From Cyanobacteria bacterium P01_A01_bin.123 (lineage in GTDB: Bacteria > Cyanobacteriota > Cyanobacteriia > Phormidesmidales > Phormidesmidaceae), in contig JBCBZT010000011.1 in NCBI GenBank assembly GCA_039815185.1, positions 96,001 through 160,000 of the forward strand: a DNA stretch of 64,000 nt, written 5' to 3'. Positions 1,767 through 58,482 of this stretch are shown here, piece after piece; position 1 is the stretch's first letter, and each line of letters opens with the position of its first letter. The position numbers and the translations under genes were made by a program. The notes beneath the pieces were generated by a model. That model made no database searches and was not told the DNA's origin. It was given only the letters and a program-made list of their open reading frames with translations.

Positions 1767-1797
1767 TCATCACTTCCTCAAAGTTTATGTGTAGCGT
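1767..1797 (+). promoter_or_regulatory. island box + -10 (DUF4342 gene)
   Basis: TCATCACTTCCTCA (1767-1780), 11 nt, TAGCGT (1792-1797). Confidence 0.75.
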
Positions 1798-1828
1798 GTG
1801 GGGATAGACCTGTTTTGGACACTGTGCC

Positions 1829-2233
1829 ATGGATATCGATCTTGAAAACACGGCCACGCCTTCAGGCGAACCTCCAGATGAAACCAATGCCGCGATCGCC
1901 CCGACTGAGGCCGAGACCAACGATCAGGAAAAGGTCACCGTAGAAGAATTTAAAGTCTCGGGCGATGCCTTGGTCGCCAAAATCAAGGAGCTGATTCACC
2001 AGGGTAATATTCGTCGCATCATTATCAAAAATCAAAACGGCCATACTCTGATCGAGATTCCGATGACCGTCGGGGTGATTGGCGGTGCCATCGGAGCAGT
2101 CATTTTTCCCGTTGTTGCTGCTGTTGCCGTCATTGGTGCGATGGTCACCCATCTGACCGTTGTGATTGAGCGTCAGGCGTCAAGCCAGTCGAGTGACTCA
2201 GAAGACTATCATGATTCAGAACAAGAAGCATAG
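1829..2233 (+). CDS. DUF4342-like protein
   Basis: EEFKVSGDALVAKIKELIHQGNIRRIIIK..LIEIPMTVG plus hydrophobic segment, typical of DUF4342. Confidence 0.8.
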   Translation: MDIDLENTATPSGEPPDETNAAIAPTEAETNDQEKVTVEEFKVSGDALVAKIKELIHQGNIRRIIIKNQNGHTLIEIPMTVGVIGGAIGAVIFPVVAAVAVIGAMVTHLTVVIERQASSQSSDSEDYHDSEQEA

Positions 2234-2310
2234 AAAATCAGTCTTAGGCTTGATTGAGCCAAACTCACGATGGCTGTTGATCAAAGCGGGCATTTTTTGG
2301 ACACTGCAGT

Positions 2311-2634
2311 ATGGGTCATAAATCTACGGAAACGAATCCAAAAGTTCAGGCAACAGGCACCATCTGGGGTTGTGCTATTGGCATGTTAGGGGTGTGTATT
2401 CCCTTGGTTGCGATTACCAACAGTGGTTTGATACTGCCCCTTCTGGTGATTCTTAGTGCAGTCGGTGGGACAGTTGCAGTATGGCTTGCCCCTGACAAGC
2501 GTCAGCGAGGGGAGGCTCATTTAGCTCAGACTATAAAGGTGTTGGAGGCACGGGTGATGAATCTAGAGACGATTTATGTCAGCCTTCCCGAGGCTGACAA
2601 ACCCCTGCCACTCCCAGAAATAGACAAGCATTGA
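2311..2634 (+). CDS. small two-TM membrane protein
   Basis: Two hydrophobic helices then LEARVMNLETI coiled coil. Confidence 0.7.
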   Translation: MGHKSTETNPKVQATGTIWGCAIGMLGVCIPLVAITNSGLILPLLVILSAVGGTVAVWLAPDKRQRGEAHLAQTIKVLEARVMNLETIYVSLPEADKPLPLPEIDKH

Positions 2635-2688
2635 GCCCCTGATGCCGACCCCACTTCCCTGATGTCTTCATTTTTCTAGGCGGAACTG

Positions 2689-2850
2689 ATGTGCTCAATC
2701 TTCTCTCAAGTTTTGGATGGACAAGTTATTGTCGGACGTAATTTCGATTGGATACAGCTAGGGGTAACGTTTGATATTTTCGCTTTCAAAAGTGAATTAA
2801 GTAAAGTGAATTTCATGATGGAATATCCTAAACAAACCAGGAGTTGCTAA
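2689..2850 (+). pseudogene. N-terminal fragment of choloylglycine hydrolase / Ntn-hydrolase family
   Basis: MCSIFSQVLDGQVIVGRNFDW: Cys2 nucleophile and GRNFDW motif; sequence drifts after about 25 codons and stops at 2850. Confidence 0.55.
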
Positions 2851-3033
2851 TATATAAATGAGGATGTAGTTGATCCTCTTTCGACATAGCAAAGATGTGG
2901 CGACGCCTAGCAAGGCAAGGCCAAACAAGGATCTAGAAAGAGACTTCTATGCGAGGGAAACCGTGAGCACTACATGCTCGTGAGTTCAATATGAAAGGTT
3001 CAGGAGAGAACCATTGGAAAACTCAATAGAGAG

Positions 3034-3076
3034 AATTTGACGGGTAATGTCGAGAGATGGCAGTGCCCGTCAAATT
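3034..3076. terminator. hairpin between convergent genes
   Basis: AATTTGACGGGTA...TGCCCGTCAAATT inverted repeat. Confidence 0.5.
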
Positions 3077-3148: not shown

Positions 3149-3814
3149 TCAAACCAGGTGTTTTTGGAACCATCGATTGGCAAGCTGGGTGACTTGTGCC
3201 AGAGTGCCGGGTTCTTCGAACAGATGAGTTGCCTTTGGGACAATCTCCAGATGTTTTTCAGCAGGGATATATCGGTAAGCCTTCTGATTCAGGATGATGA
3301 CGGGCGCGTCATTGCCTCCCACAATTAACAGCGTAGGTGTTTTGAGGCGCGTTAGAACAGAACCAACCAGATCGGGGCGTCCACCCCGTGAAACAATCGC
3401 TTTGACCGCATCTGGGCGGGCCACTGCAGCCATTAGTGCAGCAGCGCTACCTGTACTGGCTCCAAAGTAGCCAATCTTAAGCTGGCGAGTGACGGGGTTT
3501 TGCAATAACCAGTCAGTTGCCCCAAGCAGTCGCGCTGCAAGCAAACCGATATCGAAGCGGAGGTGATGGGTTTGTCGATCAATGTTTTCTTCTTCGATTG
3601 TTAGCAGGTCAAATAACAGGGTTGCTAATCCAGCTTGTTGCAGGGTTTGAGCCACATAGCAGTTACGAGGGCTGCGCCGACTGCTGCCACTGCCGTGGGC
3701 AAACAAGACAATCCCCTGAGCACTAGCGGGTACCGCTAGATTGCCGATTAATCGCACTGAATCTGTTGGGATCGAAATTAAGGTGTTATGGTCCTGTTTC
3801 TGTATCGTATTCAT
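3149..3814 (-). CDS. dienelactone hydrolase-family alpha/beta hydrolase
   Basis: LFAHGSGSSRRSPRN, GYFGASTG, VSRGGRPDL, ATHLFEEPG. Confidence 0.9.
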   Translation of the reverse strand: MNTIQKQDHNTLISIPTDSVRLIGNLAVPASAQGIVLFAHGSGSSRRSPRNCYVAQTLQQAGLATLLFDLLTIEEENIDRQTHHLRFDIGLLAARLLGATDWLLQNPVTRQLKIGYFGASTGSAAALMAAVARPDAVKAIVSRGGRPDLVGSVLTRLKTPTLLIVGGNDAPVIILNQKAYRYIPAEKHLEIVPKATHLFEEPGTLAQVTQLANRWFQKHLV

Positions 3815-3832: not shown

Positions 3833-4516
3833 TCAGCCAATAGCGTTTGGCATGGTGGGGATGAAGCTGATGTTGTGATGCTGTTGAGCCAACAGTTTAC
3901 GAACTTCTTCATCTGTGGTTTGGTCGAAGTACTCGTACCAAAGACTGATGGCATAAAAGGGAGTTGGGGTAGCTAGACAAGTCATTTGATCGACTTCAGC
4001 TTTTAAGGTTTGGTAAGTGTCTATCGGCGCAACGGGGGTGGCAACAATAAGCTGTCGGGGGCGCTGTGATTTCAGAACGGCGATCGCGGCCTGCATTGTT
4101 GCGCCTGTTGCAATGCCATCATCAACCAGAATGACAATTTGATCGCGAATTTCTGGCTGGGGCCGATTGCCCCGATAGGCACGATCTCGTCGTTGCAGTT
4201 CTCGCAGTTCTCGGGCAGTAACCCGTTCAAGGGTCTGATCAGAAATGCTGAGTGAGCTGAGGATGTCGTCGTTAAGTATCCGAACGCCGCCAAAGGCGAT
4301 CGCCCCCATAGCTAACTCCCTATGATCAGGAACTCCCAGCTTTCGCACCAGACAAATATCGAGGGGCAAATTTAAAGCATGAGCCACCTCATAGGCCACA
4401 GGTACACCGCCTCGGGGCAACCCCAATACCAGCACATCAGTGCGACTGGCATAGGCTTTGAGCTGGTTTGCTAGTAGCTGTCCTGCTTCAATGCGATTGT
4501 AAAATCTAGTGCCCAT
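3833..4516 (-). CDS. phosphoribosyltransferase-domain protein
   Basis: LGLPRGGVPVA, VRKLGVP, ILVDDGIATG PRPP-binding loop; ATG 4516 with AAGGTGAGG RBS. Confidence 0.9.
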   Translation of the reverse strand: MGTRFYNRIEAGQLLANQLKAYASRTDVLVLGLPRGGVPVAYEVAHALNLPLDICLVRKLGVPDHRELAMGAIAFGGVRILNDDILSSLSISDQTLERVTARELRELQRRDRAYRGNRPQPEIRDQIVILVDDGIATGATMQAAIAVLKSQRPRQLIVATPVAPIDTYQTLKAEVDQMTCLATPTPFYAISLWYEYFDQTTDEEVRKLLAQQHHNISFIPTMPNAIG

Positions 4517-4586
4517 AATCCTCACCTTTTTATCTTGCTCATCTTGTCGCTCGAATGGCAAAAGATTTGAGCTTCATCCTGACTTC

Positions 4587-4617
4587 AGGCTAGAGAAATA
4601 ATCTGAGGACTTTATGA
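4587..4617 (-). promoter_or_regulatory. island box + -10 (PRTase-DLH operon)
   Basis: Minus strand TCATAAAGTCCTCA (4617-4604), 11 nt, TAGCCT (4592-4587). Confidence 0.8.
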
Positions 4618-4654: not shown

Positions 4655-4668
4655 TCATAAGTTCCTTA
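4655..4668 (+). promoter_or_regulatory. auxiliary island box (no -10)
   Basis: TCATAAGTTCCTTA between the two divergent promoters; overlaps palindrome TTCCTTAAGGAA. Confidence 0.5.
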
Positions 4669-4731: not shown

Positions 4732-4762
4732 TCATAACTTCCTCAAACTCTCTCTCTAAGCT
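4732..4762 (+). promoter_or_regulatory. island box + -10 (nifJ operon)
   Basis: TCATAACTTCCTCA (4732-4745), 11 nt, TAAGCT (4757-4762). Confidence 0.85.
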
Positions 4763-4802: not shown

Positions 4803-7800
4803 ATGACAACCGCTATCTCGCGCCAGTCCACCTTCGCCACCCTAGACGGCAATGAAGCAGTGGCTCGGATCGCCTATGCTCTGAACGAAGTTATCGCCAT
4901 TTATCCCATAACACCTGCCTCGCCAATGGGGGAATGGGCTGATGCCTGGGCCGCAGGCGGTCAGCCTAATCTATGGGGAACTGTTCCCTCTATTGCGGAG
5001 ATGCAGAGCGAAGGGGGGGTAGCTGGGGTTGTTCACGGAGCACTGCAAACCGGATCGCTCACCACCACGTTTACCGCTTCCCAAGGGTTGCTATTGATGC
5101 TACCCAACCTGCATAAGATTGCGGGCGAGCTGACCCCTTGTGTGATTCATGTGGCGGCCCGATCAGTCGCAGCTCAGGCATTGTCTATCTTTGGTGACCA
5201 TAGTGACGTGATGGCGGCACGGGGCACGGGCTTTGGGTTGCTCTGTTCGGCCTCGGTGCAAGAGGCTCAGGACATGGCCGCGATCGCGACTGCAACTTCC
5301 CTTGCCAGTCGTGTCCCTTTCATCCACTTTTTCGATGGGTTCCGGACTTCCCACGAAATTCAAAAAATTAAGCTGCTTGCTGAAGATGATTTACGAGTCA
5401 TGATCGACGATAAGCTGATCGTGCAGCATCGTCAGCGTGCCCTCAGCCCCGACCACCCCGTTATTCGAGGCACTGCCCAGAACCCAGATGTATTCTTCCA
5501 GGCACGGGAAGCGGTGAATCTCTACTATGATCACTGCACCGATGTTGTCGCAAAGGTCATGGATACCTTTGCCCAACTCACCGGACGACAATATCGACCC
5601 TTTGAGTACTACGGCAGCCCGGGTGCAGAGCGCGTGATTGTGCTGATGGGCTCTGGGTGTGAAACGGTTCAAGCCACAGTGGATGCCCTCAACGAGCAGG
5701 GGGAAAATGTCGGCATGGTCAAGGTGCGTCTCTACCGCCCCTTTGACGCCGAGTGGTTGGCCACCGTACTGCCCAAAACCGTTAAAGCGCTCAGCGTGCT
5801 GGATCGCACTAAAGAACCGGGGAGTGCCGGGGAACCCCTGTACTTAGATGTGCTCACTGCGCTACTAGAACAGCGATTTACCACCCCAGACAATGCCTTT
5901 CCGGTAGTGGTCGGGGGCCGCTACGGATTGTCATCTAAAGAATTTACCCCAGCCATGGTCGTGGCTGTCTTCGATAATCTATTGCTCGACGGCTTCCAGG
6001 ACAACTGCCCGGAACCGAAGAACCACTTCACTATTGGCATTGATGACGATGTCACCCACACGAGTCTTCGCTACGACTCCGCTTTTTCCATTGAACCTGA
6101 GCAAACGATCCGGGCTATCTTTTACGGTTTAGGGTCAGACGGTACGGTTGGCGCCAATAAGAACACGATCAAAATCATTGGCGAAACCACCGACCACTAT
6201 GCCCAGGGCTACTTTGTCTATGACTCAAAGAAATCTGGCTCCGTGACCACCTCGCACCTGCGATTTGGTCCCGAACTCATCCATGCGCCCTATCTGGTCA
6301 ATCGAGCAAACTTCGTCGCTTGCCACCAATGGATGCTGCTAGACCAGCTTGACATTCTAGATCCAGCGATCGCGGGAGCTACATTTTTACTCAATTCCCC
6401 CTATACCCCTGAGGAAACCTGGCATCAACTGCCCATAAGGACTCAGGCCCAGATTATCCAGAAGCAACTTCAGGTCTATGCGATCAATGCCTACCAAGTC
6501 GCCCGCGAAGTCGGCATGGGCGGAAGGATCAACACAGTGATGCAAACCTGTTTCTTTGCCTTGTCAAAGATCTTGCCGGAGACAGAGGCGATCGCAGCCA
6601 TTAAGCATTCCATTCGCAAAACCTATGCCAAGAAAGGAGAGGCGATTGTTGCCATGAACCTGCAGGCTGTGGATCAGACCTTGCAGCACTTGTACGAAGT
6701 CTCTATGCCTCAAGCAGCTGCGGACATGACGATTCCGTCCCTTAAGTCCCCGGTGCCTGAAACTGCGCCAACCTTTGTGCAAACCGTATTGGGCCAAATG
6801 ATGCAACGTCAAGGGGACGCCATTCCCGTCAGTGCTCTACCCTGCGATGGGACTTACCCAACCGATACTGCCCAGTGGGAGAAGCGCAACATTGCCCAGG
6901 CGATTCCAGTGTGGGACTCAGATGTGTGTGTACAGTGCGGCAAGTGTGTCATGGTCTGCCCCCACGGGGTAATTCGCAGCAAAGTCTATGACCCCAAGCA
7001 GTTAAAAGATGCGCCTTCCAGCTTCAAACACACCACCGCCCGCGAATGGGTTGGTCAGGCATTCACGATTCAGGTGGCGGCAGAAGACTGCACGGGCTGC
7101 GGTATTTGCGTAGATGTGTGCCCCGCTAAAAACAAAGCCATTCCTCGATTGAAGGCAATCAACATGACCCCGGTCTACCAAACCGCCTCGGCCTCTAAGA
7201 GGTCAGCCTCTAAGACCTCAGCCTCTGAGACAGACCTTTCTGTTCAGAGGAATGGAACCCACCCGCTTCTCGATTTACGACAGCAAGAGAAACCCAACTG
7301 GGACTTCTTTTTACAGCTGCCTAACCCCGACCGACAACAGCTCAATCTGCACAAAATTAGCCAGCAGCAGATGCAAGAACCGCTGTTTGAATTTTCGGGG
7401 GCTTGTGCCGGGTGTGGTGAAACCCCCTATTTGAAGTTGCTGACTCAGCTCTTTGGCGATCGCCTACTCGTGGCCAACGCCACTGGCTGCTCCTCGATCT
7501 ATGGTGGCAACCTACCCACCACCCCCTGGAGCCAAAACGCCGAGGGACGTGGCCCTGCCTGGTCGAACTCGTTGTTTGAAGACAATGCTGAGTTTGGCCT
7601 GGGGTTCCGGGTGTCGATCGACAAGCAGGCAGACTATGCGGCTGAGCTGCTAAAGCAGATTGCTGACGCAGAAGAAGGACAGTCTGCATTGCCCACCCTA
7701 GCGCGGCAAATTCTCCAAGCACAGCAGTTAGACGAATCCGACATTGTTGAACAGCGGCAGCGGGTCACCCAACTCAAAGCCATGCTGACAGAACTGATTC

Positions 7801-12051: not shown

Positions 12052-13135
12052 GTATCGTGATGAAACACTCGTTCAAGAGTATGTCAGGGCGATCGCATCG
12101 CTGATCACCCAACCCTGGACCCTGATGGAAATTTGTGGCGGCCAGACCCACACCATCGTTAAATATGGCCTCGACCAACTGCTGCCTGCCGAAATCACGT
12201 TGATTCATGGGCCTGGCTGTCCGGTCTGTGTTACCGATACTGCCCTGATCGATCAAGCACTTACTCTAGCAGCCCAACCCGACATCATCTTTTGCTCCTA
12301 TGGCGATATGTTGCGGGTGCCAGGTACCGCCACGGATTTACTGAGTGTTAAGGCTCAGGGCGGTGACGTGCGAATCGTCTACTCTCCTCTAGATGCTTTA
12401 GCCTTGGCCCGCAGTCACCCAGACCGAGAGGTGGTGTTTTTTGCCGTTGGGTTTGAAACCACCGCCCCAGCTACGGCTATGGCAGTCTACCAGGCTCATC
12501 AGCAACAAATTGAGAACTTTTCAGTGTTAATTGCCCATGTGCTTGTTCCCCCAGCAATGGAGGCGATTTTGGCCTCCCCTGACTGTCGGGTGCAGGGCTT
12601 TTTAGCGGCTGGTCATGTTTGTACAGTAATGGGATATGGAGAGTACCATGCGATCGCCCATAAGTATCATGTCCCTATTGTGGTGACTGGCTTTGAACCT
12701 GTTGATATCTTGCAAGGTGTTTATCTCTGTTTACAACAGCTAGAAGCAGGATGTGCTGAGATTGACAATCAATATGCTCGATCTGTTCAAGCCCAAGGCA
12801 ATCTGCTGGCACAACACCTCATGGAGCAGGTTTTTCAGATTGTTCCTCGAGTGTGGCGGGGGCTGGGCAGTCTGACCCAGAGTGGCTTAGGACTTAAGAA
12901 ACCCTATGATTACCTGGATGTCCAGGTGCGGTTTGCAGACCGACTTCGCTTCCAGACTGATCTCCTGAGTGTGGATAACACCTGCATTAGCGGTCTCGTG
13001 TTGCAGGGTTTGAAAAAGCCCCGTGACTGTCCTGCCTTTGGAACGCGTTGCCGCCCCGAACATCCCCTTGGGGCTCCAATGGTGTCTTCGGAGGGAGCCT
13101 GTGCAGCCTACTATCGCTATCGCTCAGCGTCATAA
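12035..13135 (+). CDS. hypD: hydrogenase maturation protein HypD
   Basis: [33 protein letters not shown]. Confidence 0.97.
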
Positions 13136-13143
13136 GTTCCTCG
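13130..13143 (+). promoter_or_regulatory. degenerate island box overlapping hypD stop, no -10
   Basis: TCATAAGTTCCTCG; TAA 13133-13135 is the hypD stop. Confidence 0.45.
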
Positions 13144-16466: not shown

Positions 16467-16497
16467 AGTGTAGAGATCAGATTTGGGGAACTTATGA
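16467..16497 (-). promoter_or_regulatory. island box + -10 (ftsH)
   Basis: Minus strand TCATAAGTTCCCCA (16497-16484), 11 nt, TACACT (16472-16467). Confidence 0.8.
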
Positions 16498-29135: not shown

Positions 29136-29207
29136 AGTTTAGATGAACAATATGAGGAACTTGTGAACATCACTGACCACAAGTTCCTCATATTGTTTTC
29201 TTAGTAT
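29136..29207. promoter_or_regulatory. back-to-back pair of island boxes forming a perfect 20-bp inverted repeat
   Basis: Minus: TCACAAGTTCCTCA (29166-29153), 11 nt, TAAACT (29141-29136). Plus: CCACAAGTTCCTCA (29177-29190), 11 nt, TAGTAT (29202-29207). Confidence 0.85.
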
Positions 29208-31815: not shown

Positions 31816-31846
31816 AGACTAGGCAAACAGTTTGAGAAAGTTGTGA
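31816..31846 (-). promoter_or_regulatory. island box + -10 (persulfide dioxygenase)
   Basis: Minus strand TCACAACTTTCTCA (31846-31833), 11 nt, TAGTCT (31821-31816). Confidence 0.8.
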
Positions 31847-32156: not shown

Positions 32157-32250
32157 ATCATAGAAAAACAGTTTGAGGAATTTGTGTGGATTTGCGCTTC
32201 AAGAACGCTTTTAGACTCCTCACAACTTTCTCAATCTTTCTCATTAGGGT
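32157..32250. promoter_or_regulatory. divergent pair of island boxes (hoxW remnant / hypE unit)
   Basis: Minus: ACACAAATTCCTCA (32187-32174), 11 nt, TATGAT (32162-32157). Plus: TCACAACTTTCTCA (32220-32233), 11 nt, TAGGGT (32245-32250). Confidence 0.8.
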
Positions 32251-37189: not shown

Positions 37190-37220
37190 CCACAACATCC
37201 TCATACTTTCTAGTTATTAA
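37190..37220 (+). promoter_or_regulatory. island box (response regulator gene)
   Basis: CCACAACATCCTCA (37190-37203), 11 nt, TATTAA; followed by 16-bp tandem duplication 37212-37243. Confidence 0.65.
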
Positions 37221-37322: not shown

Positions 37323-37787
37323 ATGTATGAATTGCAGCTAATACAACGCACTACTCCCAAAGTGTTAATGCAGTCTCATTGCTTACTTCGGTTACTCCTG
37401 CTTCGGTTACTCCTGATTGAGGATGTCGATGACCTCCAGGCTATTATTCAGTTCAGCTTGGAAGCGATCGTGGGATGTCAGCTCACTTCGACTAAATCAA
37501 CCCAAGATTGGTTGAAAGTATTACAAGATAGTGCACCTGACGTGATTCTTTTAGATGGACAATCCAATAGTGCTCATATTTTGTCCCAGCTTAAAAAAAG
37601 TTGGTTGACGCGAGACATCCCCGTCGTTTGCCTGGTTTCGCGCGATCGCATGGATGATCAGTTACAGGCCAAACAAGCAGGAGCCGCTGCCATTGTGGCT
37701 AAACCCTTTGATCCGGGCTTTTTAGTAGAGATAATTTTGAGCATCGTTGGACCGCATTCCCCTCAACGGAATTTTTCATCTTCATAA
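37323..37787 (+). CDS. single-domain response regulator (receiver only)
   Basis: LLIED, PDVILLD, IPVV, AKPFD; no output domain; start may be 37368. Confidence 0.85.
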   Translation: MYELQLIQRTTPKVLMQSHCLLRLLLLRLLLIEDVDDLQAIIQFSLEAIVGCQLTSTKSTQDWLKVLQDSAPDVILLDGQSNSAHILSQLKKSWLTRDIPVVCLVSRDRMDDQLQAKQAGAAAIVAKPFDPGFLVEIILSIVGPHSPQRNFSSS

Positions 37788-37812
37788 CATCCTCATACTC
37801 TCTGGATAATTT
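37782..37812 (+). promoter_or_regulatory. island box + -10 (IF7-like gene / atp region)
   Basis: TCATAACATCCTCA (37782-37795), 11 nt, TAATTT (37807-37812); contains the regulator's stop codon. Confidence 0.8.
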
Positions 37813-38496: not shown

Positions 38497-40036
<1,540 letters not shown>

Positions 40037-40145
40037 TCAAGCAGCATCGCCCCCCACTCCCCTCTGCCTCCCTTACTCCCCCACTCTCTTCTGCCTCCCG
40101 TCCCCATTCCCCTACTCCCTACCTCCCCTACTCCCCCACTCCCCC

Positions 40146-40538
40146 ATGCACCACAAGCTCCTCCTCCCCACCCACGTCCTCATTGACCAACCCGTCACAA
40201 AAGTCATTGCCGAAGCTGAAAACGGAGCTTTTTGCCTACTCCCCCACCACATTGATTTCCTCGCAGCTTTAGTACCGGGTATTCTGACCCTGCAAACACC
40301 TGAGGGAGCAGAAATCTTCCTGGCTGTAGACCGGGGCATTTTGATCAAATGCGGGGCAGAGGTATTGATTTCGACTCGCAATGCCTTTCGGGGAAGTCAC
40401 CTGGAGGCATTAAAGCGGGAGGTTGAACAGCAGTTTTACACGATGGACGAACAGGAGCGTCGGGCGCGCACTGCGATCGCGCGGATGGAGGCTAGTTTGG
40501 TACGTCAGTTCACAGCCCTCGCCACGGAGGCAGGTTAA
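40146..40538 (+). CDS. atpC: N-ATPase epsilon subunit
   Basis: KVIAEAENGAFCLLPHHIDF..LVPGIL; ATG 40146 after C-rich repeat. Confidence 0.9.
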   Translation: MHHKLLLPTHVLIDQPVTKVIAEAENGAFCLLPHHIDFLAALVPGILTLQTPEGAEIFLAVDRGILIKCGAEVLISTRNAFRGSHLEALKREVEQQFYTMDEQERRARTAIARMEASLVRQFTALATEAG

Positions 40539-40832
40539 ATGTCAAAGCCACATCCCGATCAGCATTCTTTTCTAGAGGGCATCGGTGGCAAAGCCGATCG
40601 CAAGCTTAAGGCCCGCCGCACCCGCAAACAGGTGTGGTTTGCCCTGGGGATGTTTGGCATGGTGGGCTGGGCGGTGACGCTGCCGACGATGATGGGGATT
40701 GCCCTGGGGGTTTGGATTGATCGCCAGGTAGACAGCCCATATTCCTGGACATTAATGCTGTTGGCCGTGGGGGTAGGTCTAGGGTGTTGGAATGCCTGGT
40801 ACTGGGTGACGAAGGAGAGTCAACGTGATTGA
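40539..40832 (+). CDS. atpQ: N-ATPase AtpQ (AtpZ/AtpI family)
   Basis: KADRKLKAR..LGMFGMVGW..W.D..SWTL..GCWNAWYWV. Confidence 0.88.
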   Translation: MSKPHPDQHSFLEGIGGKADRKLKARRTRKQVWFALGMFGMVGWAVTLPTMMGIALGVWIDRQVDSPYSWTLMLLAVGVGLGCWNAWYWVTKESQRD

Positions 40833-40874
40833 AGCTGAGTTTACTCTGCCGCTGGAAATGCGGAGGCAATTGGT

Positions 40875-41201
40875 ATGAACAGTGGCTTATTCAGTCTGGC
40901 GCTACTGCTTTTAGCGGGCTTGAGCTTAGGAAGTGTTTACTTTGGAGGGCTTTGGATCACCCTACGGCGTCTGCCCCGGTGGCGTCGCCCTTTCCTGCGC
41001 ATGGGGCTTAGCCTGCTTAGCCGACTGGCTGTTTTACTCGGGGGCGGGGCTTGGTTATTGCAACATGCCATTGCCCCACCCCTAGCGGTGATCTTGCTGA
41101 TCAGCGTTGGGGTTTGGCTCAGCCGGACGCTACTGATTGCTCAACTGTTAACAACCGTAGAACGCTCGACTAAGACTGTTCATCCTGCTGCTCATCATTA
41201 G
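40875..41201 (+). CDS. atpR: N-ATPase AtpR subunit
   Basis: GSVYFGGLWITLRR, SLLSR; position between atpQ and atpB. Confidence 0.85.
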   Translation: MNSGLFSLALLLLAGLSLGSVYFGGLWITLRRLPRWRRPFLRMGLSLLSRLAVLLGGGAWLLQHAIAPPLAVILLISVGVWLSRTLLIAQLLTTVERSTKTVHPAAHH

Positions 41202-41215
41202 AGGGGCGATCGCTC

Positions 41216-41932
41216 ATGAATCTCACTCCCGATCAAATTCCAATTCATTTGGGACCTATTATCCTCAACGCCACCCTCGTATTTACCTGGTTTGTCATGG
41301 GGCTGCTAATCCTATTGTCCTGGTGGGTGACGCGAAATCTTTCTGCTTCAACCCGAATGTCACCCGGGCAAAACCTGCTGGAGGTGTTGGTATTAGGTAT
41401 TGGCAACCAAATTCGCGACATCAGTGAGCAAGAACCTGCCCCCTACCTGCCCTTTGTCGGGACACTATTTATTTTTATCGCCGCCTCAAATCTGCTCAGC
41501 ATTCTGCCCGGCTACCAACCCCCCACCGGGTCGCTGTCAACAACGGCGGCACTAGCCATTTGCGTATTTGTTGCGGTGCCCCTGTATGGCATTCGTCAGC
41601 GGGGTTGGCGGTCGTACCTAAAACAGTATGTGGAACCCACCCCCATCATGCTGCCGTTTAACCTCATCAGCGATGTATCGCGGATTATTTCTTTGGCGGT
41701 GCGGCTGTTTGGCAACGTGATGAGCGGCACCATGATTGTGGCCATTTTGCTCTCCATCGCACCCCTGATATTTCCAGTTGTGATGCAGGCGTTTGGACTG
41801 CTCACTGGGTTGATTCAAGCCTATATTTTTGCGGTATTGGCGATGGTGTTCATTGCAGCGGCGACTGAGGTTCACGCCTCAACTGATTCATCCAATCATT
41901 CAGACAATTCTGTGGAGGTTTCCAATGGATAA
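41216..41932 (+). CDS. atpB: N-ATPase a subunit
   Basis: SLAVRLFGN with essential Arg, IQAYIFAVL. Confidence 0.95.
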   Translation: MNLTPDQIPIHLGPIILNATLVFTWFVMGLLILLSWWVTRNLSASTRMSPGQNLLEVLVLGIGNQIRDISEQEPAPYLPFVGTLFIFIAASNLLSILPGYQPPTGSLSTTAALAICVFVAVPLYGIRQRGWRSYLKQYVEPTPIMLPFNLISDVSRIISLAVRLFGNVMSGTMIVAILLSIAPLIFPVVMQAFGLLTGLIQAYIFAVLAMVFIAAATEVHASTDSSNHSDNSVEVSNG

Positions 41933-42203
41933 TGTGGCGCTTGTCGGCATGGCTTCGATTGTGATTGCGGGGTTAACTATTGCCATTGGCTCCATTGCGC
42001 CGGCTCTTGGAGAAGGGCGCGCTTTAGCTCAGGCCCTGACTGCCCTAGCCCAGCAACCGGACGAAGCCAACACGATTACCCGCACCCTGTTTGTCGGTAT
42101 GGCTTTGGTAGAATCGACAGCCATTTACTGCTTTGTGATTACGCTGATTTTAATTTTTGCCAATCCGTTTTGGGCCTATGTGACTACTCAGGCAGGAGGG
42201 TAA
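41925..42203 (+). CDS. atpE: N-ATPase c subunit with Na+-ligand set
   Basis: GGAGG RBS; ALGEG (Glu in helix 1), QQP loop, ESTAIY. Confidence 0.95.
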   Translation: MDNVALVGMASIVIAGLTIAIGSIAPALGEGRALAQALTALAQQPDEANTITRTLFVGMALVESTAIYCFVITLILIFANPFWAYVTTQAGG

Positions 42204-42206
42204 TCC

Positions 42207-43001
42207 ATGCTGATTGATCCGTTTACCGTTCTGGCGCAAATCGTCAACTTTTTGATTTTGGTGGCGCTGCTGAAGCATTTCCTCTATGGGCCGATTACGC
42301 GCACTATGGCTCAACGAGAACAAACTATTGCCGAACAGCTAGCGCGGGCCGAACAGCAAGAATTAGCAGCCCAAACAGAGGCCGCTCGAATGCAGCAAAT
42401 GCAGCAGGACTTTGCTGCTCACCGAGATCAGCGACTGGCCCAGTTGCGATCGCAGATCGAAGACCAGCGCCTTAACCTGGTAGAGCAAGCCGAAGATGAG
42501 GTCGAGACTGCTAGAACTCGCTGGTACCGAGCTTTAGACCAAGAGAGAACAATGGTCTTACAGGCTTTTCGCCAGCAAGCCGCCTATCAACTGATGCAAA
42601 CAGTTCGCCAAGTCTTGATAGATCTCGCCAATGCTGACCTAGAGCAGCAGGTGGTGGCAAAGTTCTTAAATCGTTTGGGCCAGTTACCAGAGTCAGAGCA
42701 ACAGGCGCTACGGGCCGCGTTGACCCAGGCCGATGGTGCCTCGATGATCATTCGCAGCAGTTTTCTTTTAACAGAAGACACGCAGCATTCCCTCACAGAA
42801 GCGTTGCAGACAGCGGCAAAGGCTCAGCTTGTTCCGATACAGTTTGAAATCAACGCTGCCCTCGGCTGTGGTATTGAGCTTAGAGCTCCCGGCTACAAGT
42901 TGGAATGGACCCTAGCTGCCTACCTCGACAACCTAGAACACAACCTGGCCCTTACCCTAGACCAGCATGTGGAAGTTGAGCCAACCGTTATCTCTGCCTA
43001 G
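42207..43001 (+). CDS. atpF: N-ATPase b subunit (long, delta-like C-terminus)
   Basis: [24 protein letters not shown], long coiled coil, GIEL..W; no separate atpH. Confidence 0.92.
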
Positions 43002-43005
43002 AGCC

Positions 43006-44520
43006 ATGGCATCAGACATTCTCAAGCCGCTACTGACAAACACCTTAAGTTGCTTCGCCCAAGCAGTGGAGCGCAGCCCTTTGGCACTGACTTGTCAGGA
43101 GGTGGGCACCGTCACCTTTGTCGGCAGTGGTATTGCTCGAGCGACGGGACTGCCTAATGTGCAATCGCAAGAGCAGGTTCGCTTTGCTGATGGTGCCTTT
43201 GGGTTGGCATTTAACCTGGACGTGGATCAAGTGGGCTTGGTGTTGCTGGATAACCGCGAGACCTTAAAGGCGGGCAGTGAAGTCCAGCGTACGGGGCGAG
43301 TGCTGGATGCGCCTGTCGGAGAAGGATTACTGGGACGAGTGATTGACGCCACTGGACGCGTTTTAGATGCCGGTGCACCACTGCCTGTTTTGGAACGGCA
43401 ACCGATTGAACGCCCGGCTCCGGCAATTATGGATCGGGCCCCTGTGACGGTGCCCCTACAAACTGGCATTAAAGTCATTGATGCCCTAGTTCCCATTGGT
43501 CGGGGGCAGCGGCAGCTTATTTTGGGTGATCGGCAGACAGGCAAAACCGCGATCGCCCTCGACACCATCCTCAACCAAAAAGACAAAGACGTGATTTGCA
43601 TCTACTGCGCCATTGGCCAGCGTAGTGATGCGGTTGCCAAACTCGTTGCTGATTTGCGCCACCAAGGGGCAATGGGATATTGCATTGTCGTTGTTGCCAG
43701 CGGTGAAGATACCCCCGGATTGCAGTACATCACACCCTATGCTGCCACCACCATGGCCGAATATTTCATGGCGCAGGGCCGCGATGTCCTGATCATCTAC
43801 GATGACTTGATCCACCATGCCAGAGCCTACCGAGAACTGTCCCTTTTGCTGCGCCGTCCTCCTGGTCGTGAAGCCTTCCCCGGCGATATTTTCTATATTC
43901 ATGCCCGCTTGCTAGAGCGCGCCACTTGCCTACGCCCCGAACTGGGGGGGGGATCCCTGACGGCCTTGCCTATTGTTGAAACCGAAGCAGGGAATCTGTC
44001 TGCCTACATTCCGACTAACTTAGTGTCGATTACAGACGGACAAATTTACCTGACCCCTAACCTGTTTCAAAAAGGCATTCTTCCGGCAGTAGATGTCGGT
44101 CGGTCGGTCTCTCGTGTCGGCGGCAACGCCCAACTCCCTGCCTATCGGTCTATTTCAGGCGATCTGCGACTCGCTTACTCCCAGTTCCAAGAGCTTGAAT
44201 CCTTTGCTCGCTTTAGCACCCGCCTGGATGAGTCTACTCAGCAGGTTCTAACCCGAGGTCGTCGCATCCGAGCCGTTTTACAGCAAGACCAGTACCATCC
44301 GCTCACCGTCAGTCAACAAATCGCCCTACTCCTGACTGCCAACGAAGGGGTGTTGGATAACTTGCCCATTGATCAGATTTCTCAATTTGAATCAAACCTT
44401 ACCCAAGCCGTCGAAACCCAGCTCCCTGATATTTGCCAGCGCATTTTATTGGGAGAGCAGTTAGCCGAGGGGGATCGGCAGGCACTGTTGGATATGGCCA
44501 GTGAGGGAGTGGGGGAGTGA
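43006..44520 (+). CDS. atpA: N-ATPase alpha subunit
   Basis: [27 protein letters not shown]. Confidence 0.97.
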
Positions 44521-44699
44521 GGGAGTGGGGGAGTTGAGGTGGAGAAGATGGAGGAGGTGAGGAGGACTTCGCCAACGGTTCTACCCCGACCACCCGATCA
44601 CGCCAACCCTGCGGGATGCCGCTGTCACATCTACCCCATCACTCGATCACCCCAACCCTCTGGGAAGCCGCAATCTCCTCTACACCCCATCACCCCATC

Positions 44700-45608
44700 A
44701 TGCCCACTCCCGAAACCCTCCAGCGCAAAATCAAAAGTGCTGAAGAACTCCAATCCATTGTTAAAACCATGAAAGCCTTGGCTGCCGTCAGCATTCGTCA
44801 GTACGAAAACGCGGTGGTTTCTCTGGCAGAGCATAGTCGGGCGCTGGCAATGGGGTTGCAAATTTTAATGATCAACAATCCTGACGCTTTGATAGCCCAG
44901 CGTCCCAGTCGTCCTCAGCGGCTAGGCATTGTCGTGTTTGGAAGTGATCAGGGGATGTGTGGTCGATTTAACCAGCAGCTGGTTGAGTCTATTGTGAATC
45001 GCTTAGAGCGGTTGCGTAGGGCTCATTTATTGCAGGGGAACACAGCATTCTCACCCGCGTTACTGGTTGTAGGGTCCCGAATTGCTGACGGACTCCTCGC
45101 CGCTGACCAACTCGTGGAAGAATACTTGCCCGTGCCGGGCTCCATCGATGGCATTACGCCGCTGGTACAACGTATCGTGCTACAGCTAGAAGCTTGGCGC
45201 CAAACTGGCCAGGTCGATCACATTTGGGTGTTTCACAACCGCCCTGCTGGGGGAACTGTCTCAACACCTACGTTGTTGCAGCTATTTCCGCTGAGCTACC
45301 TCTATCTGCACAAGCTCCAGCAACAGCCTTGGCCTTCTCGCTGCCGCCCTCAGGTAACAATGGCACGCGATCGCTTATTTTCTGCTTTGTTTCAACAGCA
45401 CTTTTTCATTGGTCTTTATCGAGCCTGCGCTGAATCTCTCGCCAGTGAGAATGCTAGCCGCCTGGCATCCATGCAAATTGCTGAAAAAAACATTGAAGAA
45501 CGCCTGAGCGACCTGAAAGTTACCTTTCAGCAGCAGCGCCAAACTGCCATCACTGAAGAACTGCTCGATATTGTCTCTGGCTTTGAAGCCCTAGCCCAAG
45601 ACCCCTAG
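44700..45608 (+). CDS. atpG: N-ATPase gamma subunit
   Basis: LQSIVKTMKALAA, GSDQGMCG, SENASRLASM, RQTAITEELLDIVSG. Confidence 0.95.
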   Translation: MPTPETLQRKIKSAEELQSIVKTMKALAAVSIRQYENAVVSLAEHSRALAMGLQILMINNPDALIAQRPSRPQRLGIVVFGSDQGMCGRFNQQLVESIVNRLERLRRAHLLQGNTAFSPALLVVGSRIADGLLAADQLVEEYLPVPGSIDGITPLVQRIVLQLEAWRQTGQVDHIWVFHNRPAGGTVSTPTLLQLFPLSYLYLHKLQQQPWPSRCRPQVTMARDRLFSALFQQHFFIGLYRACAESLASENASRLASMQIAEKNIEERLSDLKVTFQQQRQTAITEELLDIVSGFEALAQDP

Positions 45609-46456: not shown

Positions 46457-46487
46457 TCACAAATTCCTCAAAGTGTTGATTTATAAC
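46457..46487 (+). promoter_or_regulatory. island box + -10-like (usp-usp-hoxEF)
   Basis: TCACAAATTCCTCA (46457-46470), 11 nt, TATAAC; reads TCCTCAC-AAAT-TCCTCAA. Confidence 0.8.
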
Positions 46488-50065: not shown

Positions 50066-50096
50066 TCATAGTTTCACCAAATTGTTGTCTTAATCT
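50066..50096 (+). promoter_or_regulatory. degenerate island box + -10 (Hsp20)
   Basis: TCATAGTTTCACCA (50066-50079), 11 nt, TAATCT (50091-50096). Confidence 0.6.
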
Positions 50097-51114: not shown

Positions 51115-51145
51115 TCACGAGTTCCTCAACTTTGTGACGTAGCGT
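51115..51145 (+). promoter_or_regulatory. island box + -10 (hoxU unit)
   Basis: TCACGAGTTCCTCA (51115-51128), 11 nt, TAGCGT (51140-51145). Confidence 0.8.
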
Positions 51146-51191: not shown

Positions 51192-51320
51192 ATGATGAGC
51201 CAAGAAATTAACCCAGATTTGAAACATCTACAAGTGCTTTCAATCTTCCACTATGTTTTGGGCGGCTCGATGGCAGTTTTTCGATTACCTGGGGATTACA
51301 TTAGAACACAACTGCAATGA
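51192..51320 (+). CDS. 42-aa ORF, probably truncated membrane protein
   Basis: AGGAGG RBS; MMSQEINPDLKHLQVLSIFHYVLGG..; TGA overlaps next ATG. Below ORF-track cutoff. Confidence 0.5.
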   Translation: MMSQEINPDLKHLQVLSIFHYVLGGSMAVFRLPGDYIRTQLQ

Positions 51321-51802: not shown

Positions 51803-51817
51803 TCGGTGTTGAAGACA

Positions 51818-52643: not shown

Positions 52644-52674
52644 CCACAAGTTCCTCATACTTTTTATCTAGGGT
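52644..52674 (+). promoter_or_regulatory. island box + -10 (pstB-hoxY)
   Basis: CCACAAGTTCCTCA (52644-52657), 11 nt, TAGGGT (52669-52674). Confidence 0.85.
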
Positions 52675-54770: not shown

Positions 54771-54801
54771 TCACAAGTTCCTCACGCTTTTGATTTACAA
54801 C
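54771..54801 (+). promoter_or_regulatory. island box + -10-like (CBS-hoxH)
   Basis: TCACAAGTTCCTCA (54771-54784), 11 nt, TACAAC. Confidence 0.8.
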
Positions 54802-54863
54802 TGGTTTGTCCATAGCAATAGTGCATCTATTGCCAATAGTTCGATTTACCAGGGAGTTTGATC

Positions 54864-55316: not shown

Positions 55317-56756
55317 GTGAACAGAATCGTTATTGATCCGGTGACTCGGATTGAGGGCCACGCCAAAATCTCCATCTACCTCGACGACCAAGGTGAAGTT
55401 GCCGATGCCCAGTTTCACGTTACCGAATTCCGCGGATTTGAGAAGTTTTGTGAGGGGCGGCCCTTCTGGGAAATGCCAGCCATTACCGCCCGCATCTGCG
55501 GTATTTGCCCAGTTAGTCATCTGCTGGCTTCGGCTAAAGCGGGCGATCGCCTTTTGGCCGTACAAATTCCCCCAGTAGCAGAAAAGCTGCGGCGGCTGAT
55601 GAACTTGGGGCAAATTATTCAATCCCACGCCTTGAGCTTTTTTCATCTCAGCAGCCCAGATTTGCTGCTGGGTTGGGAGAGTGACCCAGCCGAGCGCAAT
55701 CTCTTTGGCCTGATGGTAGTGGAACCAGAACTGGCTCGGGGTGGCATTCATCTGCGCCAGTTTGGGCAATTGGTGATCGAACAGTTGGGCGGGCGTAAAA
55801 TTCACCCGTCATGGGCAGTGCCCGGTGGCGTCCGATCTGCCCTGTCTAAAACTGGGTGTGATGATATTTACGCGCATCTGCCCCAAGCCAAAGCTATCAT
55901 TTTGGCCACCCTGGATCGGTTTAAGCACTTGCTTGATGGTTTTCAACAGGAAACCCATATCTTCGGTAACTTTCCCAGCCTATTTATGGGGCTGGTAGCT
56001 GATGATGGAACTTGGGAGCACTACGATGGCCATCTGCGCTTTGTCGATAGCGGCGGCAACATTATCGCCGACCGACTCGATCCTAGCCACTACCAGCAGT
56101 TTATTGGTGAGGCGGTACAGCCAGATTCCTACCTAAAATCACCCTACTACAGACCATTAGGCTATCCCGACCAAGCCCAGCACTGTCGTTTGGAGAGTGG
56201 CCTGTATCGGGTCGGGCCGTTGGCGCGGCTGAATATCTGCGATCGCACCGGCACGCCCTTAGCCGACAGGGAATTCCGAATTTTCCGTCAACACGGCACG
56301 GTGAACAGCTCCTTTTTCTATCACTACGCCCGCCTGATCGAAATTCTCACCTGTATCGAGCGAATTGAAACCGCCCTACATGATCCAGACTTGCGGGGTG
56401 ACCCTTTGCGATCGCGAGCTGATGTCAATCAACGCGAAGCCATTGGCGTGGGGGAAGCCCCCCGAGGCACGCTATTTCACCACTACAAAATCGACGAAAC
56501 TGGTCTGCTCACCCAGGTCAACCTAATTATTGCCACCGGCCAAAACAACCTGGCCATGAACCGGACGGTTGCTCAAATTGCTCGCCACTATATTCACGGC
56601 CTAGAAATTCCAGAGCGTATGCTCAACCGCGTAGAAGCAGGCATTCGCGCCTTTGACCCCTGCCTCAGCTGTTCTACCCATGCTGCTGGACAGATGCCTT
56701 TGCACCTGCAACTGATTGGGGCCGATGGTCAGGTGTTGCATCAGGTGTATCGGTAA
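55317..56756 (+). CDS. hoxH: bidirectional NiFe hydrogenase large subunit HoxH
   Basis: [25 protein letters not shown] plus cleavable C-terminal tail. Confidence 0.97.
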
Positions 56757-56760
56757 AGCC

Positions 56761-56791
56761 TCACAAAATCCTCAACTCTACTCCCTAGGCT
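56761..56791 (+). promoter_or_regulatory. island box + -10 (hoxW-hypAB)
   Basis: TCACAAAATCCTCA (56761-56774), 11 nt, TAGGCT (56786-56791). Confidence 0.85.
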
Positions 56792-56831
56792 TAAAGGTGA
56801 ATACCTCTATCCCCAAGGAGACTTACCCCTA

Positions 56832-57362
56832 ATGCTTGCTTCCCCAAAAACTCAGGTCTCTACCCAATACGACTTTTTGATCATTGGTTACGGCAGCGAA
56901 CTACGAGGGGATGATGCCGTGGGTCCTCGGGTTGCGATGGCTGTGGCTGAATGGCAACTCCCGTCAGTTAAATCGCTGGCAGTTCACCAGCTGACACCAG
57001 AACTGACCGCCGATATGGCCCAAGCCCACTACGTGATTTTTGTGGATGCCTGCGGTAGAAGCTGCGCCCAAACGATTCAAATCGATCCGATTGGGGTTAG
57101 CAAATCGACATCTGATGTTATCCCCGCTGGGACTCACAGCAATACCCCCTCGGTCTTACTCAGCCTGACCCAGCAGCTCTACGGTCACCATCCCCAGGGC
57201 TGGCTGCTGCAAGTTTCCACTGAATGTTTTGATTTGGGTAGTCAGCTTTCTTCAACGGCTTGTCAAGGTTGCGATCGCGCCCTCAGAACCATTGAACAGT
57301 TCTTCAAAACCTATCGACGGCCATTCTTAATGGGCCAAGCATCATGCATGAAATCAGCCTGA
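56832..57362 (+). CDS. hoxW: hydrogenase maturation protease
   Basis: IIGYGSELRGDDAVG, HQLTPEL (HoxW-type), IFVDA. Confidence 0.92.
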   Translation: MLASPKTQVSTQYDFLIIGYGSELRGDDAVGPRVAMAVAEWQLPSVKSLAVHQLTPELTADMAQAHYVIFVDACGRSCAQTIQIDPIGVSKSTSDVIPAGTHSNTPSVLLSLTQQLYGHHPQGWLLQVSTECFDLGSQLSSTACQGCDRALRTIEQFFKTYRRPFLMGQASCMKSA

Positions 57363-57685
57363 TGCAGGCAGCGCTATCTGTCGCGATAGATCATGCCAAA
57401 GCAAACGGAGCCAGCAGAATCCACCGGATTCAACTGCAGGTCGGCGCGTTATCCGGCGTGGTACCTGATGCATTGGATTTTGCTTTTGATGTCGTTAGCG
57501 CTGGCACCCTGGCAGAAGACGCTGAGCTAAAGCTAGAAACCATCCCCACCTTGTGTTACTGCGCCCATTGTCAGCAAACCTTTCAGCCATCAGGCTGGGT
57601 TTATGACTGTCCTCATTGCCATCAGCTCAGCACTGATATTCGCCAGGGTCAAGACTTAGAACTCACATCGCTGGAGGTTTCGTGA
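57344..57685 (+). CDS. hypA: hydrogenase nickel metallochaperone HypA
   Basis: MHEISL, CxxC..CPxC. Confidence 0.96.
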   Translation: MHEISLMQAALSVAIDHAKANGASRIHRIQLQVGALSGVVPDALDFAFDVVSAGTLAEDAELKLETIPTLCYCAHCQQTFQPSGWVYDCPHCHQLSTDIRQGQDLELTSLEVS

Positions 57686-57686
57686 C

Positions 57687-58457
57687 ATGTGTGGAAACTG
57701 TGGATGCCAAACTGATCAATCACCGTCAATGGAAATTGATGCTCGACAGATCCTGCATTTACATCAAAACGTGCGGGCTAAAAATGACCAGTATGCAGTG
57801 CAAAATCGGGTTTTGTTCCGCCACCTGTTAGCGCTGAATGTGCTGGCTTCCCCTGGTGCAGGCAAAACTGCGTTAGTTCAGCGCCTGCTGCAAGATCTGC
57901 ATCTGATTTCGGGGGCTGACCCACTGCATAGTCGAGATGTGCCAATACGGGCTGGGGCGATTGTCGGCGATCTTGCCACCGATCGCGATGCTAAGCGATT
58001 GCGCCAAACCGGAATTCCAGTCGTGCAAATTACGACGGATAATCTCTGCCATTTAGATGCCCACAGCATCGCCCAAGCCGCCCAAAAGCTCGATCTCGCC
58101 AACCTCGATCTATTGATTATTGAAAACGTGGGTAACCTGGTCTGTCCTGCTGCCTACGACCTGGGAGAAGACCTCCGCATTGTGCTGATGTCGGTTACCG
58201 AGGGAGAAGATAAACCACTGAAATATCCCACCATGTTCAAGTCGGCCCACGCAGTCGTGATCAGCAAAATCGACCTCAGCGAGGTCGTCGGGTTCAAGCG
58301 GGATGAAGCCCTGCATCACCTGAGTTTGGTTGCACCCCAGGCGCTAATTTTTGAGCTTTCTGCTGTCACGGGTCAGGGATTGGCAAATTTTTACGCCTAT
58401 CTAGGACAGGAGATCTTTCAATGTCAGGCGAAGCAGGATCCGGTTCCAGCGTCATAA
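57687..58457 (+). CDS. hypB: hydrogenase nickel-insertion GTPase HypB
   Basis: MCGNCGC, SPGAGKT, CHLDA, ENVGNLVCP, EGEDKPLKYP. Confidence 0.96.
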   Translation: MCGNCGCQTDQSPSMEIDARQILHLHQNVRAKNDQYAVQNRVLFRHLLALNVLASPGAGKTALVQRLLQDLHLISGADPLHSRDVPIRAGAIVGDLATDRDAKRLRQTGIPVVQITTDNLCHLDAHSIAQAAQKLDLANLDLLIIENVGNLVCPAAYDLGEDLRIVLMSVTEGEDKPLKYPTMFKSAHAVVISKIDLSEVVGFKRDEALHHLSLVAPQALIFELSAVTGQGLANFYAYLGQEIFQCQAKQDPVPAS

Positions 58458-58482
58458 CTTCCTCAAACTCTTCGCTTATTCT
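58452..58482 (+). promoter_or_regulatory. island box + -10 (kinase-hypF-hypC)
   Basis: TCATAACTTCCTCA (58452-58465), 11 nt, TATTCT (58477-58482); contains hypB stop. Confidence 0.85.

Follow-up and report, generated by a model that had tools for sequence, protein, structure and literature searches.

A direct-repeat promoter box over hydrogenase and fermentation genes of cyanobacteria, with an RcaC-type regulator and a heme-PAS kinase as candidate reader and sensor

FixL-FixJ, DosS/DosT-DosR of mycobacteria and ArcB-ArcA of Escherichia coli are, together with the cyanobacterial RcaE-RcaF-RcaC and RfpA-RfpB-RfpC systems, the closest described relatives of the system considered here. FixJ is LuxR-type and acts through FixK; DosR, likewise LuxR-type, recognises palindromic sites and receives its signal from sensors with heme in a GAF domain; ArcB is a membrane-bound quinone sensor; and the L box reads TTGCACA-N4-TTGCACA. 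Pyruvate formate-lyase (PFL), pyruvate:ferredoxin oxidoreductase (PFOR) and hydrogenase are oxygen-sensitive. How oxygen producers sense the loss of O2 and start the bidirectional hydrogenase and fermentation is addressed here through a promoter box that recurs 20 times in 64,000 nucleotides of Cyanobacteria bacterium P01_A01_bin.123, termed the window, the whole stretch of DNA that was analysed (G000:C6:96001-160000, where G000 is the source genome, an 8.09-Mb assembly in 133 contigs).

In its operation the system outlined below would resemble FixL-FixJ, DosST-DosR or ArcBA, while its parts are of RcaC type. With FixL-FixJ and E. coli DosP it shares a PAS domain that carries the heme-pocket His, and mostly the Arg, ahead of HisKA-HATPase; it differs from FixL-FixJ in its output, an OmpR-type winged helix with Hpt and extra receivers that is often fused to the kinase, and from FixL and DosP in its targets, genes that serve fermentation, H2 metabolism and the photosystems in an oxygenic phototroph. 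The RcaC and RfpB systems have the same REC-wHTH-Hpt-REC regulator (REC, receiver; wHTH, winged helix-turn-helix), single-domain receiver, kinase and 11-bp direct repeat, whereas their helix and site are different and their sensor is a bilin photoreceptor instead of a heme-PAS-like protein. The DosR regulon resembles the present targets in its content of universal stress proteins (USPs), Hsp20, CBS proteins, a phosphoribosyltransferase with a hydrolase, and pfk, and ArcB-ArcA resembles the present system in a His-Asp-His-Asp relay to a winged helix over pfl and hydrogenase genes. PhoB/SphR and CopR/ManR sites likewise consist of two repeats 11 bp apart that replace the -35, but the repeat sequence is different.

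Control of hox and nifJ is attributed, in the available text of two sources, to cyAbrB1/2, SigE and LexA in Synechocystis 6803 and to RpaA in PCC 7942, with ChlR acting on low-O2 tetrapyrrole genes (PMC11368403, PMC13421787). As far as that text extends, the hox factors are global or nucleoid regulators (cyAbrB, SigE, LexA, RpaA) described in unicellular models only; they share targets and microoxic or dark physiology with the present system, whereas no such box and no RcaC-type or heme-PAS regulator appears there. The accessible part of one of these, a 2026 review of cyanobacterial redox signalling, names only cyAbrB, SigE and RpaA for hox and leaves FixL and RcaC unmentioned (PMC13421787).

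All 20 copies of the box reported in an initial annotation of this DNA are present (Table 1). The consensus YCAYAANWTYCTCA is matched exactly in 12 sites and with at most one mismatch in 19, where 100 dinucleotide shuffles of the window give a mean of 1.25 ± 1.13 such matches and a maximum of 5; the weakest site, 50066+, has three mismatches and scores 12.6 bits. A TAnnnT hexamer begins 11 nt after the 14-nt core in 15 sites and TA stands there in 18, leaving 4655+ and 13130+ with no -10, which reproduces the earlier counts. Eighteen sites lie outside called open reading frames (ORFs), and the remaining two, 32174- and 32220+, sit among remnants between real genes, in agreement with the description of the copies as intergenic or stop-overlapping. 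Three sites point to broken genes (psbU-like, hoxW-like and ABC exporter) whose intact homologues are boxed elsewhere.

Across 318 distinct pooled sites the box resolves into a 22-nt direct repeat, (TCYTCAMAWKT)x2, followed by a T-rich spacer and TA, and its self-match is maximal at 11 bp (6.5 of 11, vs 2.8-5.0 at other offsets). Tandem direct repeats with a 10-11 bp period and a fixed place over the -35, ahead of the -10, are the features of an OmpR/PhoB-type site. The initial reading as a Pho box of 7-4-7 geometry thus stands insofar as such a repeat replaces the -35, but the repeat unit itself is the 11-bp one. No -35 is recognisable and the -10s are weak, which fits the expectation of activation. 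Conservation ends at position -3 with nothing conserved upstream, which ruled out both a CRP-type palindrome and an ECF -35 read from the opposite strand. The Pho regulon was also rejected: the window holds no E. coli-type Pho box and the targets are fermentative except for one lone pstB, which has no SphR-type half-site before it, so that the sequence is indeed unlike both Pho operators, as had been claimed. This pstB stands without pstSCA between hoxU and hoxY, behind a strong box. Among the annotated genes there is no manganese-transport target that would point to ManR, whose direct repeat the reverse complement of the box was initially said to resemble loosely. The box is almost certainly a functional regulatory site.

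A matrix trained on the window found 19 sites of at least 18 bits in the rest of the source genome, which served as hold-out; 15 are intergenic (13% expected) and 13 have TA at +11 (6.1% expected, p=3e-12). They stand before a cyclopropane synthase with a desaturase, Hsp20-CBS, an ABC exporter, a PAS kinase operon without a DNA-binding domain just left of the window (C6:89-93 kb), and genes that neighbour a sulfide:quinone reductase-like cluster. A crtI-like oxidoreductase follows a weaker site of 16.5 bits. The initial annotation had proposed this whole-genome scan and had named equal frequency in coding DNA, or random orientation, as a sign against the regulon; the hold-out matches are enriched for intergenic position and for TA at +11, and the reversed matrix finds 6 matches against 212 in the loci described next.

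Conservation was followed in 80 named hoxU loci (1.48 Mb, a set to which PCC 7120 does not belong). The 212 matches of at least 16 bits fall in 74 of them, 166 being intergenic and 192 having the next ORF on the same strand; TA begins at exactly +11 in 201 and TAnnnT in 144. These loci are mostly from Nostocales and relatives and are therefore not independent. A count of the strict pattern followed by N11-TA covered 301 genomes of the phylum. Within the class of the window a genome has up to 29 copies; of the 168 genomes from other classes, 23 show one match each and no genome shows more, as with the reversed control. The box described earlier as island-wide does occupy the island with 20 sites, but it is also found elsewhere in the genome, throughout the class and partly on plasmids. 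Its targets across cyanobacteria are hox, hyp, nifJ, pflAB, ppsA, pfk, USP, Hsp20, N-ATPase and rogue D1 genes. The proposal that nifJ, hox, hyp, USP, Hsp20, ftsH and the N-ATPase region form a single regulon is supported. Seven box-rich genomes hold 114 sites, and the 60 of these that were examined, as sixty loci, extend the list by pflB, pflA-like activating enzymes, ppsA, pyruvate kinase, glycogen phosphorylase, CBS-CP12, a cation ATPase, psbA and a DUF305 protein. On Acaryochloris plasmid pREB4 the box precedes the same genes, including atpD, hoxW, nifJ, ftsH and USPs. The psbA behind the box in six named loci (L260, L108, L109, L113, L125, L186) encodes Group 2 (rogue) D1, with D189, A333 and no D342. 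Stanieria has rogue D1 as petC-psbA on a plasmid, also with S170. The proposed extension of the scan to other hox and N-ATPase islands found the box in most of the 80 hoxU loci, and none in the 50 kb around the N-ATPase of Picosynechococcus 7002 pAQ7, so the N-ATPase is not always a member of the regulon. Many hoxU-positive genomes likewise lack a strict box, which makes the box one of several ways in which cyanobacteria control hox. In genome G203 a box-like sequence occurs on six contigs in six identical copies that share one spacer; it is probably a repeat element rather than a set of regulon sites.

The earlier proposal of an OmpR/PhoB-family activator, to be looked for beside the window, held as to the type of site, which is that of a winged-helix protein, but not as to the location: none of the 26 Trans_reg_C genes above the cut-off lies on the window's contig C6, and the only regulator-type gene in the window is that of a receiver-only protein. 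The likely reader is RcaC-type and lies on another contig. Clustering of the proteins of the 80 hox loci found a REC-wHTH-Hpt-REC hybrid in 11, and in nine of these a near-invariant wHTH is divergent from a boxed USP-hoxEF promoter. The same wHTH occurs in AM1_D0171 of Acaryochloris pREB4, with a box just upstream, and all 22 genomes (of 80) with a wHTH match of E<=1e-48 have at least three boxes. Box-rich genomes outside Nostocales (G101, G277, G279) have forms of 600-640 amino acids (aa) with the same helix, located in G101 within the box cluster. Those of G101 and G277 cluster at 99% with the product of C101:107766-109586 of the source genome. This 606-aa protein is encoded by the sole G000 gene with the helix pattern AVRTHIKGLR (match at C101:108330); its Pfam domains are two Response_reg, Trans_reg_C and Hpt, and it has D51 and the His of AHKLAGS, as an RcaC-type protein should.

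The association between helix and box was examined in 201 newly drawn genomes of the class, 154 of them not used before. At least three boxes are present in 34 of 44 helix-positive vs 9 of 157 helix-negative genomes, and among the previously unused genomes in 23 of 32 vs 9 of 122. With labels shuffled within families, the association has p=5e-5. Four of the nine helix-negative exceptions carry variants of one or two residues (AVRTHVKG or AIRTHIKG). A forward test gave a similar picture: the best plasmid relative of the C101 protein, on Stanieria pSTA7437.01, lies amid 11 boxes in 40.7 kb, every one of them with TA at +11, where the reversed matrix finds none, and its neighbours are USPs, ftsH, a pyrD-like gene, ldh, ppsA and petC-psbA. 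Two further relatives have 2 and 3 box matches nearby, and two regulators with other helices have 0 (on a plasmid, in 20.7 kb) and 1.

Several observations weigh against the C101 protein as reader. Its wHTH is 64% identical to the Nostocales form and groups with it at weak support, and no box precedes its gene. Four box-rich genomes are without a clear orthologue (G104 with 7 boxes; G197, G177 and G205 with 5 each), 7 of the 44 helix-positive genomes have 0 or 1 strict box, and the co-occurrence could reflect linkage on a mobile island. A sister paralogue with helix AVTTQIKGLR is moreover found beside very similar boxes, of TCATAAWWTCCTCAT type, in two genomes, and is one of the proteins that would read the box if the AVRTHIKGLR protein merely rode on the island; the others are NblR, the Rre28-like L017, CopR/Rre34 and RpaA. 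Rre34 has been suggested to aid nifJ transcription in Synechocystis (PMC11368403), and RpaA is given as a hox controller in PCC 7942 (PMC13421787). Against such readers, 11 hoxU-positive genomes have NblR but not a single box; with 37 candidates scored per genome, no L017 orthologue was detected in six genomes that carry 6-12 boxes, and many genomes that carry none do have one; and the profile of L022 fits the box distribution equally poorly. The pSYSX operator of CopR is TTTCAT-N5-TTTCAT and the best box score in that 6.7-kb region is 8.5 bits, while contig C93, which holds kaiB, has no match of at least 15 bits. A reader from this group is accordingly improbable. The CopR/Rre34 regulon as such was rejected, as the repeats upstream of pSYSX copM and copB differ and so does the helix (NVVAAQVRLLR); pSYSX CopR is RppA-like and closer to L031 than to L022.

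The near-invariant spacing to TA, and a group 2-like sigma gene on pREB4, would also suit a repressor site, or a promoter that is served by an alternative sigma factor of its own. The two-fold direct repeat, the missing -35 with weak -10s, and the power of a wHTH helix to predict the presence of the box speak against both, and we regard them as very improbable. The AVRTHIKGLR protein, judged from its helix and distribution, is very likely the protein that binds the box.

In many Nostocales this regulator and a kinase are fused into one polypeptide, and in these hybrids a PAS domain stands immediately before the kinase core. PAS matches in the PDB at E<=1e-5 are solely FixL, DosP and the heme-PAS of 10jx, and a second hybrid agrees; sequence matches to FixL and DosP have E values of 1e-13 to 1e-18. 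A model of the PAS domain (13-sequence alignment, pLDDT 81) ranks FixL first, at Z 16.6 with a root-mean-square deviation of 2.6 over 120 aligned residues, so that FixL is top in both sequence and fold. All 14 sequences compared retain the His aligned with the FixL heme ligand (H200), and 12 of the 14 retain the Arg aligned with R220. The source genome has one such PAS, in a soluble CBS-PAS-GAF-PAS-PAS kinase (C101:118798-121920) 9 kb from the regulator. In five of five tests the fused Nostocales kinases have their best G000 match in the core of this kinase, and the single-domain receiver that follows it (C101:121972) is the same receiver as follows the fused genes. The heme-type PAS is the sensory domain common to the fused and separate kinases examined, and the DNA-binding domain linked to it is Trans_reg_C, not LuxR-type. 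FixL-FixJ proper, with its LuxR-type FixJ, was accordingly ruled out. The RcaC and RfpB systems proper were ruled out too, as other paralogues hold those clusters and the partner kinase has a heme-type PAS. Within the 201-genome draw, a heme-type PAS lies within 5 kb of the helix in 22 of the 44 helix-positive genomes (21 candidates scored per genome); the search passed over the source genome's own copy and gave a match in 12 helix-negative genomes as well. Non-heme PAS domains also reach Z 14-16 in the fold search, which counts against a heme assignment. The domain is a putative heme oxygen sensor of the FixL/DosP type and, provided that the AVRTHIKGLR protein is the reader, heme-bound O2 is likely to be the main input.

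Low O2 or darkness, the signal proposed initially, remains a candidate that the sensor domain and the targets favour, among them the oxygen-sensitive enzymes and the boxed Group 2 D1 genes. Group 2 D1 is reported as dark-induced in four species and as induced by dibromothymoquinone (DBMIB) in Acaryochloris marina (PMC4408414). Table S3 of PMC5295598 tabulates only the changed genes of A. marina MBIC11017 after 7 days under N2 in continuous light, a microoxic condition; all 60 rows for AM1_D01xx and D02xx were used. Eight of 11 directly boxed genes fell at least 2-fold, vs 10 of 49 other tabulated plasmid genes (p=0.002), which runs counter to a simple O2 switch, while hoxE, hypD and the pyrD-like gene rose 2-4-fold under lit N2 (PMC5295598). 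Several of the tabulated genes are also down under high O2, and the text of the article has the plasmid ATPase slightly up (PMC5295598). These tabulated rows support co-regulation of the boxed genes, not microoxic induction in the light. The responses of rogue D1, the missing rise of boxed genes in lit microoxia, and the CBS and GAF domains of the G000 kinase all suit a variant in which box and RcaC-type reader are the same but the input, instead of heme-bound O2, is darkness, the energy charge or a plastoquinone pool in its reduced state, sensed in an ArcB-like manner via CBS, GAF or other PAS domains. The heme-type PAS shared by fused and separate kinases, with its invariant His, argues against that variant, and pREB4 lacks 3.6 kb that is present between hypE and ppsA on the plasmid of Acaryochloris S15 and encodes a heme-PAS hybrid kinase and a REC-kinase, a lack that could account for the missing induction in MBIC11017. 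No heme-type PAS was found among the matches listed for pREB4, with the MBIC11017 chromosome outside the search. A purely dark or redox signal is on these grounds unlikely, though less so than another reader. Acaryochloris offers a natural experiment in this respect, S15 having the kinase pair and MBIC11017 being without it. Read coverage in A. marina gives two 5' ends, coarsely placed, which are 13 and 18 nt further downstream than the predicted +1.

The mechanism that would unite these elements treats the box as a class II activator site whose 11-bp repeats lie over the -35, and in which a weak -10 that opens with TA follows 11 nt after the 14-nt core. Two OmpR-type winged helices, arranged head to tail, would bind it and recruit a sigma70-type polymerase. 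The reader would be the RcaC-type REC-wHTH-Hpt-REC(-REC) protein with helix AVRTHIKGLR, which in the source genome is encoded at C101:107766-109586 and would act on the window in trans. Once the heme has given up its O2, chiefly under dark anoxia, the soluble heme-PAS kinase would become active, and phosphate would pass via the single-domain receiver and Hpt modules to the N-terminal receiver of the reader. Fermentation, H2 release, N-ATPase, stress proteins and rogue D1 would then be switched on. Taken as a whole, an AVRTHIKGLR reader under a heme-PAS relay that responds to O2 loss is the probable explanation, with somewhat less assurance than attaches to its single parts.

Descriptions of the box or the regulator were not found in the literature searched, exact 14-mers included, a search outside which most subscription journals lie. 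With no match in print and no fit to the Pho, CopR, RcaC, RfpB or FixJ systems proper, the initial impression of an undescribed site holds. Database names for the proteins are only 'response regulator', 'histidine kinase', 'PAS domain S-box protein' and 'multi-component transcriptional regulator'. Older work is said to have dealt with heme-binding PAS motifs in Anabaena, so a part of the system may have been described before. The chances are about even that the full picture is right and new: a FixL-like heme phosphorelay in many filamentous and some unicellular cyanobacteria, often as one sensor-transcription factor of 1200-1700 aa on mobile islands or plasmids, with overall control, as master switch, of hydrogenase, PFOR, pyruvate formate-lyase, N-ATPase and rogue D1, and with site, regulator and sensor role undescribed. 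Candidate site, regulator and sensor are named here, each directly testable, and rogue D1 and the N-ATPase are tied to one circuit, a possible handle for engineering H2 production or for an anoxia-inducible promoter.

Table 1. Boxes and associated features. Box positions are those of the 14-nt core in the window, and a minus-strand site is named by the low end of its core; MBL, metallo-beta-lactamase.
Feature	Position	Strand	At +11	Downstream gene or context
Box	1767..1780	+	TAGCGT	DUF4342 ORF 1829-2233
Box	4604..4617	-	TAGCCT	phosphoribosyltransferase 3833-4561 and hydrolase 3149-3814
Box	4655..4668	+	no -10	upstream partner of 4732
Box	4732..4745	+	TAAGCT	nifJ 4803-8537, then pyrD-like, pfk, hypD
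Box	13130..13143	+	no -10	over hypD stop; next ORF 13314-13733, no family; promoter role doubtful
Box	16484..16497	-	TACACT	ftsH 14400-16370 and DUF3122
Box	29153..29166	-	TAAACT	divergent pair with 29177; nearest gene 450 nt off (hydrolase 26977-28716)
Box	29177..29190	+	TAGTAT	toward broken psbU-like gene, then aldo-keto reductase 29868-30842
Box	31833..31846	-	TAGTCT	MBL-fold (sulfur dioxygenase-like) gene 31040-31759
Box	32174..32187	-	TATGAT	toward hoxW-like remnant
Box	32220..32233	+	TAGGGT	toward ABC-exporter remnant (deleted operon, intact on C49), then hypE 32596-33684
Box	37190..37203	+	TATTAA	receiver-only protein 37323-37787
Box	37782..37795	+	TAATTT	81-aa ORF 37880-38125; ~900 nt before N-ATPase operon
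N-type ATPase operon	38675..45608	+		beta, epsilon, AtpQ/gene1, AtpR, a, c, b, alpha, gamma; probable target
Box	46457..46470	+	TATAAC	USP, USP, hoxE, hoxF (46530-49951)
Box	50066..50079	+	TAATCT	weak (3 mismatches); Hsp20 50191-50658
Box	51115..51128	+	TAGCGT	ORF 51317-51802 and hoxU 51806-52537
Box	52644..52657	+	TAGGGT	lone pstB 52704-53519 and hoxY 53542-54084
Box	54771..54784	+	TACAAC	CBS protein 54858-55292 and hoxH 55317-56756
Box	56761..56774	+	TAGGCT	hoxW, hypA, hypB (56832-58457)
Box	58452..58465	+	TATTCT	over hypB stop; adenosine-kinase-family gene, hypF, hypC (58519-61633)
S15-only kinase pair	L267 8390-12013			vs L042 31017-31068 (pREB4)

Boxes also occur back to back for divergent promoters, 10 and 32 nt apart (29136-29207 and 32160-32250), a layout repeated in other genomes. 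A second, fragmented set of island genes with near-identical promoters is found in the source genome at the end of C101, on C100, at C49:108-114 kb and at the start of C59; it comprises USPs, ppsA, Hsp20, CBS, an alcohol dehydrogenase, an ABC exporter and a pentapeptide protein, and the remnants in the window are decayed copies of some of these genes. The assembly has 6% contamination, so this second set may be of mixed origin. The sister system with the AVTTQIKGLR regulator (L291 4707-12569; L292 292-8909) includes single receivers and a 1400-aa kinase, with the box adjacent, and TCATAAWWTCCTCAT-like boxes are conserved in genomes of family f3. In the genome to which locus L148 belongs, the L box precedes pcyA-like and phycocyanin genes, and no exact copy was found in the source genome, which has a phycocyanin/pcyA cluster with its own RcaC-type pair at C84:37-48 kb and a far-red photoacclimation cluster with a chlF-like D1 and an RfpB/RfpA-like pair at C95:120-148 kb. 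Inside the island, a fadD-fadB-fadA-fadE beta-oxidation cluster (16553-25481, minus strand), to our knowledge unusual for cyanobacteria, lies without a strong box, and an ORF for a four-helix bundle resembling 23S rRNA IVP/Avd proteins (18971-19354, plus strand) stands between fadA and fadE.

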